From the NCBI RefSeq assembly GCF_001677475.2, contig NZ_CP015229.1: a stretch of 64,000 nucleotides of DNA; one strand, 5' to 3'. Each line of letters begins with the position of its first letter. Positions within the stretch are counted from its first letter, which is position 1. A model generated the notes under the pieces. The model saw nothing but the letters and a program-made list of their open reading frames with translations. It was not told where the DNA came from and ran no database searches. Positions 39,573 to 40,513 of the stretch are shown piece after piece. The translations under genes and the position numbers were made by a program. This DNA comes from Escherichia coli (GTDB lineage: Bacteria > Pseudomonadota > Gammaproteobacteria > Enterobacterales > Enterobacteriaceae).

Positions 39573-39583
39573 TTTTTGAGATA

Positions 39584-39612
39584 AAAATGCCAGCCGATCG
39601 GGCTGGCATTTT
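39584..39612. terminator. Bidirectional terminator between macB and cspD
   Basis: AAAATGCCAGCCgatcgGGCTGGCATTTT perfect hairpin flanked by A/T runs. Confidence 0.75.
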
Positions 39613-39644
39613 GCCTTTAGGATGTACACAATGAGACAGAAGAG

Positions 39645-39869
39645 CTATGCGACTGCCGCTTCTACTTCGACGGGCACAATAACACTGGCGTGATTGCCTT
39701 TTGGCCCCTGGTGGACATCAAACTGAACGGATTGTCCAGCTTTTAGCGTTCTGTAACCATCCATCTGAATGGTGGAATAATGAGCGAAAATATCTTCGCC
39801 GCCGCCTTCAGGGCAGATGAAACCAAACCCTTTGGCATTGTTGAACCACTTAACAGTACCCTTTTCCAT
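39645..39869 (-). CDS. cspD: Cold-shock-like protein CspD
   Basis: ORF trimmed to MEKGTVKWFNNAKGFGFICPEGGGEDIFAHYS (RNP1 motif), 74 aa. Confidence 0.92.
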   Translation of the reverse strand: MEKGTVKWFNNAKGFGFICPEGGGEDIFAHYSTIQMDGYRTLKAGQSVQFDVHQGPKGNHASVIVPVEVEAAVA

Positions 39870-40192
39870 GCTTCGACATCCTTCGCAAATCTTATACAAA
39901 TAAGATGGAATAAACCGGGGTCAGAGAGGGGGGCTGTTCAAAACCTCGCCAACTCTAGAAATACAATTTAGAGAATTAGGGCGAGCCGTCAAGCATTTGA
40001 CAGGGGGCAAGGGGCAGGTATGAATCAAAAATTTGAAGCAGTTAACGCTATTGACAGGAATGTGACAGATGTCGCTGATGCCAACGATAGATGATAGTTA
40101 TCTATCATGTGGAGTAGATTGGTCAGGCAAATAAGCTCTTGTCAGCGGCAGGGCGTTCTGCCGATAACCGTAACCGAAGATGATAACTGACA

Positions 40193-40513
40193 ATGGGTAA
40201 AACGAACGACTGGCTGGACTTTGATCAACTGGCGGAAGAAAAAGTTCGCGACGCGCTAAAACCGCCATCTATGTATAAAGTGATATTAGTCAATGATGAT
40301 TACACTCCGATGGAGTTTGTTATTGACGTGTTACAAAAATTCTTTTCTTATGATGTAGAACGTGCAACGCAATTGATGCTCGCTGTTCACTACCAGGGGA
40401 AGGCCATTTGCGGAGTCTTTACCGCCGAGGTTGCAGAAACCAAAGTGGCGATGGTGAACAAGTACGCGAGGGAGAATGAGCATCCATTGCTGTGTACGCT
40501 AGAAAAAGCCTGA
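40193..40513 (+). CDS. clpS: ClpA adaptor ClpS
   Basis: 106-aa [46 protein letters not shown]. Confidence 0.93.

Follow-up and report, generated by a model that had tools for sequence, protein, structure and literature searches.

The question raised by this locus was the function of a perfect inverted repeat located in the divergent intergenic region between cspD and clpS. It was found in a 64,000-nucleotide stretch of Escherichia coli DNA, hereafter called the window, in which the neighbouring genes follow each other in the order macB, cspD (minus strand, ATG at 39869), yljB, clpS and clpA. The repeat displayed two 7-bp arms around a 4-bp spacer (7-4-7 register), was located 85 to 102 nt 5' of the clpS ATG (40193) and was directly preceded by GATAG (40086-40090). 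The repeat, its arms and spacer, the preceding GATAG, the distance to clpS and the divergent arrangement had all been described in a first-pass annotation and were confirmed from the sequence. The same annotation regarded the repeat as a candidate operator for a dimeric regulator, and this claim was upheld in part. Protein dimers typically bind two inverted arms separated by a short centre, and the arms indeed lay in regulatory DNA (−36 to −19 relative to the promoter start mapped at 40127); the evidence gathered here points to the tyrosine integrase of a mobile island as the protein recognising them, and not to a host regulator. The coordinates of all features are collected in Table 1.

Table 1. 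Features of the cspD-clpS intergenic region and its surroundings, in window coordinates.
Feature	Position	Strand	Remarks
yljB small ORF, 24 codons	40020-40094	+	RefSeq annotation and ORF list
CRP-like site TGTGA-N6-TCGCT	40061-40076		overlaps PhoB site; CRP core 8/10
Second overlapping perfect dyad GATAGAT-GATAGTT-ATCTATC (7-7-7)	40086-40106		created by the extra GATAG
Conserved 17-bp core ATAGATGATAGTTATCT	40087-40103	+	nearly invariant in 34 sequences
ATAG	40087-40090		100% conserved (34 sequences)
ATGATAGT	40091-40098		82-97% conserved (34 sequences)
TATCT	40099-40103		97-100% conserved (34 sequences)
Inverted repeat ATGATAG-TTAT-CTATCAT (perfect 7-4-7)	40091-40108		perfect in the window and E. 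albertii only
att core ATGATAGTTAT	40091-40101		direct repeat at both island ends (L174, L175); segment that would confine strand exchange
−35-like hexamer ATGATA	40091-40096	+	4/6, weak; 18-bp spacer; T 91%, G 97% conserved
Middle of 7-4-7 right arm	40104-40106		essentially free (34 sequences)
T	40110		100% conserved (34 sequences)
−10 hexamer TAGATT	40115-40120	+	88-100% conserved (34 sequences): T100 A100 G88 A100 T97 T100; mapped TSS 7 nt 3'
clpS coding sequence	40193-40513	+	gene served by the proximal promoter

A perfect 7-4-7 repeat is not rare per se: the window contained ten of them, as compared to about 4.1 ± 1.8 in first-order Markov simulations. The additional GATAG created a second perfect dyad in 7-7-7 register, and two overlapping perfect dyads at one spot were encountered in one out of 200 simulated windows. 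The specific pattern of the repeat, allowing up to two mismatches, was expected 0.11 times per window. A further perfect 7-4-7 repeat, ATCTTAT-ACAA-ATAAGAT (39889-39906), was located in the cspD 5' UTR, and closely similar copies occurred in other genera. The region of the cspD mRNA (39581-39975, minus strand) also matched the cspA thermoregulator of Rfam below threshold (40.5 bits, gathering score 78). The whole 323-bp intergenic region (39870-40192) was identical in none of 5,426 complete E. coli genomes, the best match being 99.1%; the window may thus stem from a lineage, or from a close relative such as Shigella, not covered by this genome set.

The repeat is very probably the empty chromosomal attachment site (attB, or attC in the PICI literature) of E. 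coli phage-inducible chromosomal islands (PICIs, phage satellites) of the EcCIIHE3034 type; this high confidence applies jointly to the two parts of the best explanation, i.e. the attachment site and its overlap with the clpS promoter. Islands of this type were 9 to 11 kb long and encoded a P4-type tyrosine integrase. In strain 28Eco12, the left edge of the repeat marked the precise end of homology, and a 10.6-kb island was inserted there between yljB and clpS. Besides the tyrosine integrase, its products comprised two AlpA-like regulators, an Icd-like protein, a D5-type primase, SSB, a λ gpE-like capsid protein and a decoration protein, as well as a Nu1-like small terminase. A related island of 9.2 kb, carrying a different packaging module, occupied the identical insertion point in O157:H7 strain PV15-279. 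In both islands, attL consisted of host-GATAG, core and TTATCAG-island, and attR of island-TATAA, core and CTATCAT-host; the empty site of the window (40060-40135) corresponded to host-left, core and host-right. Because both islands were bounded by ATGATAGTTAT at their attL and attR junctions, strand exchange appeared confined to this segment, the limits of which were set by mismatches between attB and attP at 40090 (G/A) and 40102 (C/T).

The attR junction, diagnostic of an island inserted exactly here, was detected in 361 of the 5,426 complete E. coli genomes, in agreement with about 370 genomes displaying an intergenic region split in two. The 41-bp site was identical in 4,773 E. coli genomes. 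As an attachment site, the apparent orphan operator would thus be the landing pad of a mobile element present in about one out of 15 E. coli genomes, O157:H7 strains included. In Table S1 of Fillol-Salom et al. (2018, ISME J), the islands EcCIIHE3034 and EcCI18098 are entered under cspD-clpS, with ATGATAGTTAT as their att core and rdgR as their accessory gene. The same study describes eight E. coli attC sites of PICIs that are never used by prophages, and its integration assay made use of the int-attP segment of another island (Fillol-Salom et al. 2018).

The circular, excised form was represented by a 10.8-kb viral metagenome contig (L179), in which P arm, core and P' arm were contiguous. As derived from the junction sequences, attP and attB matched at 19 of 22 positions over 40087-40108. 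The attP of the two different islands read TATAAAT-GATAGTT-ATTTATC, with six of seven arm pairs and a 7-bp centre identical to that of attB, which itself displayed seven of seven arm pairs around GATAGTT in the 7-7-7 register. Only five of seven pairs were kept by attP in the 7-4-7 register. Overlap regions of tyrosine recombinases usually measure 6-8 bp, and the 4-bp centre of the 7-4-7 register is shorter. On these grounds, the 7-7-7 dyad is most likely the B-O-B' core of attB, composed of two putative inverted core-binding sites of the integrase around a 7-bp overlap, and we infer that the functional register is 7-7-7 rather than 7-4-7. For the predicted positions of integrase contact and cleavage, symmetry and the boundaries of sequence identity were the only guides.

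The integrase was a 412-aa protein with Arm-DNA-bind_3 and Phage_integrase domains, and at attL its gene started some 175 bp away from the core. Both islands displayed, at identical positions, putative arm-type repeats, namely TGTTCG (seven copies) and GGTGTAGTYAAT (four copies). Integrases about 76% identical to this one adjoined another, published core (ACATTATTAATATCGTGA). Integration may then be pictured as follows. Integrase subunits would bind the inverted 7-bp arms GATAGAT and ATCTATC, strands would be exchanged within the identical central segment with a crossover confined to ATGATAGTTAT, and the island would end up inserted between yljB and clpS. The conserved host sequence would offer the satellite a stable landing pad.

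The interval between infA and clpA constituted a second variable spot of this neighbourhood (L161, L165, L167, L169). In Salmonella-like genomes it harbored LysR-family, pirin and isochorismatase genes, and in one E. coli-like metagenome contig it harbored a transposase together with Mor- and HicB-like genes.

Conservation was assessed on 34 distinct clpS upstream sequences of Enterobacteriaceae, which aligned gap-free across the element. They were gathered from one genome per species, from metagenome contigs recovered via an invariant upstream block, and from genomes recovered via the neighbouring infA. No indel was encountered between the conserved blocks in any of the 34 sequences. Conservation across Enterobacteriaceae, which the first-pass annotation had suggested as a check of the operator, was not borne out for the palindrome: the perfect 7-4-7 form was confined to Escherichia, one to six of the seven pairs were kept elsewhere, and pair counts were only marginally above those of shuffled controls. 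The conserved unit was instead an asymmetric 17-bp core followed by a −10 element, and not a dyad. A nested TAGAT-N7-ATCTA dyad was conserved as well, inseparably from plain sequence conservation. In four Klebsiella-like sequences (L082, L084, L162, L170), the TTAT centre was flanked by longer inverted arms of 11 nt with one mismatch (ATAGATGATAG-TTAT-CTATGATCTAT).

The conservation of the 17-bp core across Enterobacteriaceae most plausibly stems from its use by the host as the −35/spacer region of a σ70/σ38 stationary-phase promoter of clpS. The spacing between TTATCT and TAGATT was fixed at 10 nt in every aligned sequence. From this spacing and from conservation, the −10 element and a start near 40127 were predicted before the published start was found. 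Cho et al. (2014, Additional files 6 and 7) mapped a transcription start at 922070 of NC_000913.2 (40127 of the window, plus strand; 166 reads) in stationary phase (S) only and another one at 922054 (40111, plus strand; 77 reads) under heat shock (H) only. Both were assigned to σ70/σ38 and to the transcription unit clpS-clpA (Cho et al. 2014). No start was listed here for exponential phase (Kim et al. 2012). T40110 was invariant and 40111 was always a purine across genera; the −10 element of the heat-shock start was not clear. Outside the aligned group, Serratia, Yersinia, Rahnella, Acerihabitans and Photorhabdus displayed extended −10 elements (TGnTAAAAT and similar) 65 to 88 nt 5' of clpS, and the position of TAGATT, 71 to 74 nt 5' of clpS, matched that of these outgroup elements.

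With its mapped start, conserved TAnAnT and −35-like hexamer, the clpS site resembles σ70/σ38 promoters that have a weak −35 and are used under particular conditions; it differs from a plain promoter in its 18-bp spacer and in the very high conservation of flanking bases. Promoters selective for σS are characterised by C at −13 and by an A/T-rich region downstream of the −10, both of which were absent at the clpS promoter.

Several further observations were made around this promoter. In some E. coli genomes (L171, L173), G40117A changed the −10 hexamer to TAAATT, together with the synonymous C40082T in yljB and with an intact repeat; about 650 of 5,424 genomes differed somewhere in the 41-bp block. 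In three Enterobacter asburiae-like sequences (L007, L094, L126), about 55 nt of the clpS 5' UTR were missing from a few nt past TAGATT, leaving only 19-20 nt from the −10 to the clpS ATG and no obvious Shine-Dalgarno. The clpS 5' UTR of the window carried a GC-rich hairpin, GGCAGGG-CGTT-CTGCC(G), at 40146-40163, and differently spelled hairpins (e.g. ACAGGC…GCCTGT) were present at a comparable position in other genera; RNAalifold on a MAFFT alignment revealed no consensus structure for it. A σ28-like GCCGATAA at 40160-40167 was attributed to chance, as it had no −35 partner and was not conserved in other genera. Far upstream, published starts on the plus strand at ~39640 (1,011 reads) and ~39597 (103 reads) were located just after the macB terminator and ran antisense through cspD toward clpS. 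These starts imply either a 553-nt clpS leader carrying yljB or an antisense RNA to cspD.

The left arm of the repeat also contained the yljB stop TGA (40092-94) and the next in-frame codon, TAG. YljB is among the small proteins validated by western blot and has a Salmonella homologue, STsORF27. Comparison of yljB at five loci (L003, L004, L007, L162, L165) uncovered considerable variation. Escherichia and Salmonella-like sequences had an intact yljB-like ORF; in the Salmonella-like ones its stop was shifted from TGA to the next codon, TAG. Klebsiella-like sequences kept the start and stop positions with the first half in another frame. The ORF was restricted to 14 codons in Citrobacter-like sequences, was extended in Leclercia-like ones and lacked an ATG in several Enterobacter-like ones. 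The YljB peptide sequence was not conserved across Enterobacteriaceae. Coding constraint on yljB was rejected as the cause of core conservation, the core being kept in genera in which the ORF was altered or absent.

Upstream of the repeat, a PhoB ChIP site (40050-40067, minus strand), with the table entry 'cspD/clpS TGTCACATTCCTGTCAAT' and no expression change reported, displayed a Pho box score of 14/18. Two CRP-like sites had their centres at distances of 83.5 and 112.5 bp from the start of cspD (~39956); these centres match the CRP sites of cspD reportedly described by Uppal et al. 2014, the one at 40061-40076 presumably being site II (−112.5). Activation of the clpS promoter by CRP bound at site II would involve a centre at −58.5, off the usual helical phase. 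A 24-nt block inside yljB (40028-40051, AAA(A/T)TTTGAAGCAGTTAACGCTAT) was invariant in all aligned Enterobacteriaceae and still recognisable in Serratia, Yersinia, Rahnella and Photorhabdus. The first of the two CRP-like sites, TTTGA-N6-TAACG (centre at 83.5 bp), was part of this block, the conservation of which went far beyond the need of a CRP site.

ATAG (−40 to −37) and TATCT (−28 to −24) were more conserved than σ contacts alone require, and core DNA may be read by a host factor other than σ. Besides serving as an att site, ATAGATGATAGTTATCT could be the operator of a host regulator that binds over the −35 and controls the stationary-phase clpS promoter, a proposal which we consider unlikely. 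It would account for the near-invariance of the core in the 34 sequences, including positions outside normal σ70 contacts, for its maintenance irrespective of yljB coding and for the condition-specific use of the proximal promoter. The best-fitting pattern was of LysR type, either ATA-N9-TAT (Nac-like) or ATAG-N7-YTAT. LysR-type boxes follow T-N11-A, with ATA-N9-TAT for Nac and ATAG-N7-CTAT for the OxyR type. From 40087 onwards, ATA-N9-TAT was matched at 6/6 and ATAG-N7-CTAT at 7/8 positions, coinciding with invariant columns at a background of about 0.01, and two sequences (L130, L131) displayed a perfect ATAG-N7-CTAT.

The invariant ATA(G) at 40087-90 and (T)TAT at 40098-101 fit LysR-type boxes exactly. 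Unlike LysR-type systems, the site is not known to have a cognate regulator or a second half-site pair, and so short a pattern could occur by chance. Such patterns hold little information. The core sequence appeared neither in ChIP or footprint reports nor as a binding site in the literature searched, no second copy of the element was found in E. coli genomes by BLAST (a poor motif finder), the 7-4-7 dyad of the first-pass annotation was not conserved, and a centre at about −32 would be atypical for class II activators. A comparison with transcription factor motifs, also suggested by that annotation, was made with consensus strings, among which only the low-information LysR-type pattern fitted.

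It is very improbable that the repeat acts as RNA, that is, as part of a long clpS leader (starting at ~39640 or ~39597) or of the yljB 3' end, folding over the yljB stop and thereby affecting termination, stability or translational coupling. Starts producing a long leader do exist, as mentioned above with 1,011 and 103 reads, the plus strand folded to −8.5 kcal/mol (z = −2.3), and two pairs displayed double substitutions preserving pairing. Against this, RNAalifold found no consensus structure in the 34 sequences, and two central pairs were broken in 14 and 17 of them, respectively. The repeat lacked a U-tract, was not called as a terminator, coincided with no RNA 3' end reported by term-seq and matched no Rfam family, and the yljB ORF was absent from several genera keeping the core. 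A conserved RNA or cruciform hairpin was rejected in view of the broken pairs and of the lack of a consensus structure, a 3' end and an Rfam match.

A site for a known metal or global regulator (Fur box, TetR-like operator, or IHF/Fis/Lrp site) is less credible still and, as far as motifs go, practically refuted: TGATAG and CTATCA are tetO half-sites and the GATA-rich hexamers recall a Fur box (Fur 7-1-7, 10/14), but the tetO half-sites occur here in opposite order and scores against consensus strings were at background for Fur (19-mer, 11/19; 0.37), TetO (11/19; 0.24), IHF (7/9; 0.51), Fis (7/11; 0.99) and Lrp (11/15; 0.40). Matches to the consensus sequences of PhoP, DnaA, ArcA and others were likewise all at background level together with those just listed. 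GlpR- and DeoR-like scores (12/16 and 11/16) reflected generic palindromy, the key CG core being absent. Repression of clpS by PhoP is reportedly known from work by Yeom and colleagues in 2018; no PhoP box was visible at the repeat by consensus scoring.

The preferred reading, an island attachment site overlapping the clpS promoter, assigns three functions to about 25 bp: satellite att core, −35/spacer of the stationary-phase clpS promoter, and stop codon of YljB. After integration, attR keeps the −35, the −10 and three of the four ATAG bases. Everything 5' of 40091 is replaced, with loss of the invariant G40090 and of the sites for CRP and PhoB. Since the upstream part of the promoter is replaced at attR, an effect on clpS expression is conceivable, and strains with an inserted island could produce altered amounts of ClpS, an adaptor, and of ClpA, an unfoldase. 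A more specific version of the operator proposal holds that the 17-bp core also binds a host regulator, possibly of LysR type, which gates the stationary-phase clpS promoter, and that integration would rewire ClpS/ClpA expression; it is rated slightly below the operator itself, as a rather improbable combination. If true, such rewiring would concern the ~7% of E. coli strains with an island here.

Two further comparisons concern known attachment sites. Those of the phage λ type (B-O-B') consist of two short inverted core-binding sites flanking an overlap of 6-8 bp, which is identical in attP and attB. In λ-type systems, attP additionally carries flanking arm-type sites, and the integrase possesses a separate arm-binding domain. 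The cspD-clpS site shares with them the putative inverted core sites and the identical centre, the putative arm-type repeats and the arm-binding domain of the integrase. It differs from λ attB by its unrelated sequence and by an integrase belonging to a different, P4-type clade. The second comparison is with the cspD-clpS site of EcCIIHE3034 and EcCI18098, from which nothing essential differs in the catalogue of Fillol-Salom et al. (2018). The supplementary text consulted from that catalogue gave the core and flanking genes without the inverted arms or the overlaps with the yljB stop and the clpS promoter. The 11-bp core, the location, the island size (10.5-10.8 kb) and the gene set were identical, the window representing the empty form. 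The repeat is thus explained as the catalogued attB of a PICI family, and it overlaps the stationary-phase clpS promoter, which is likewise catalogued.
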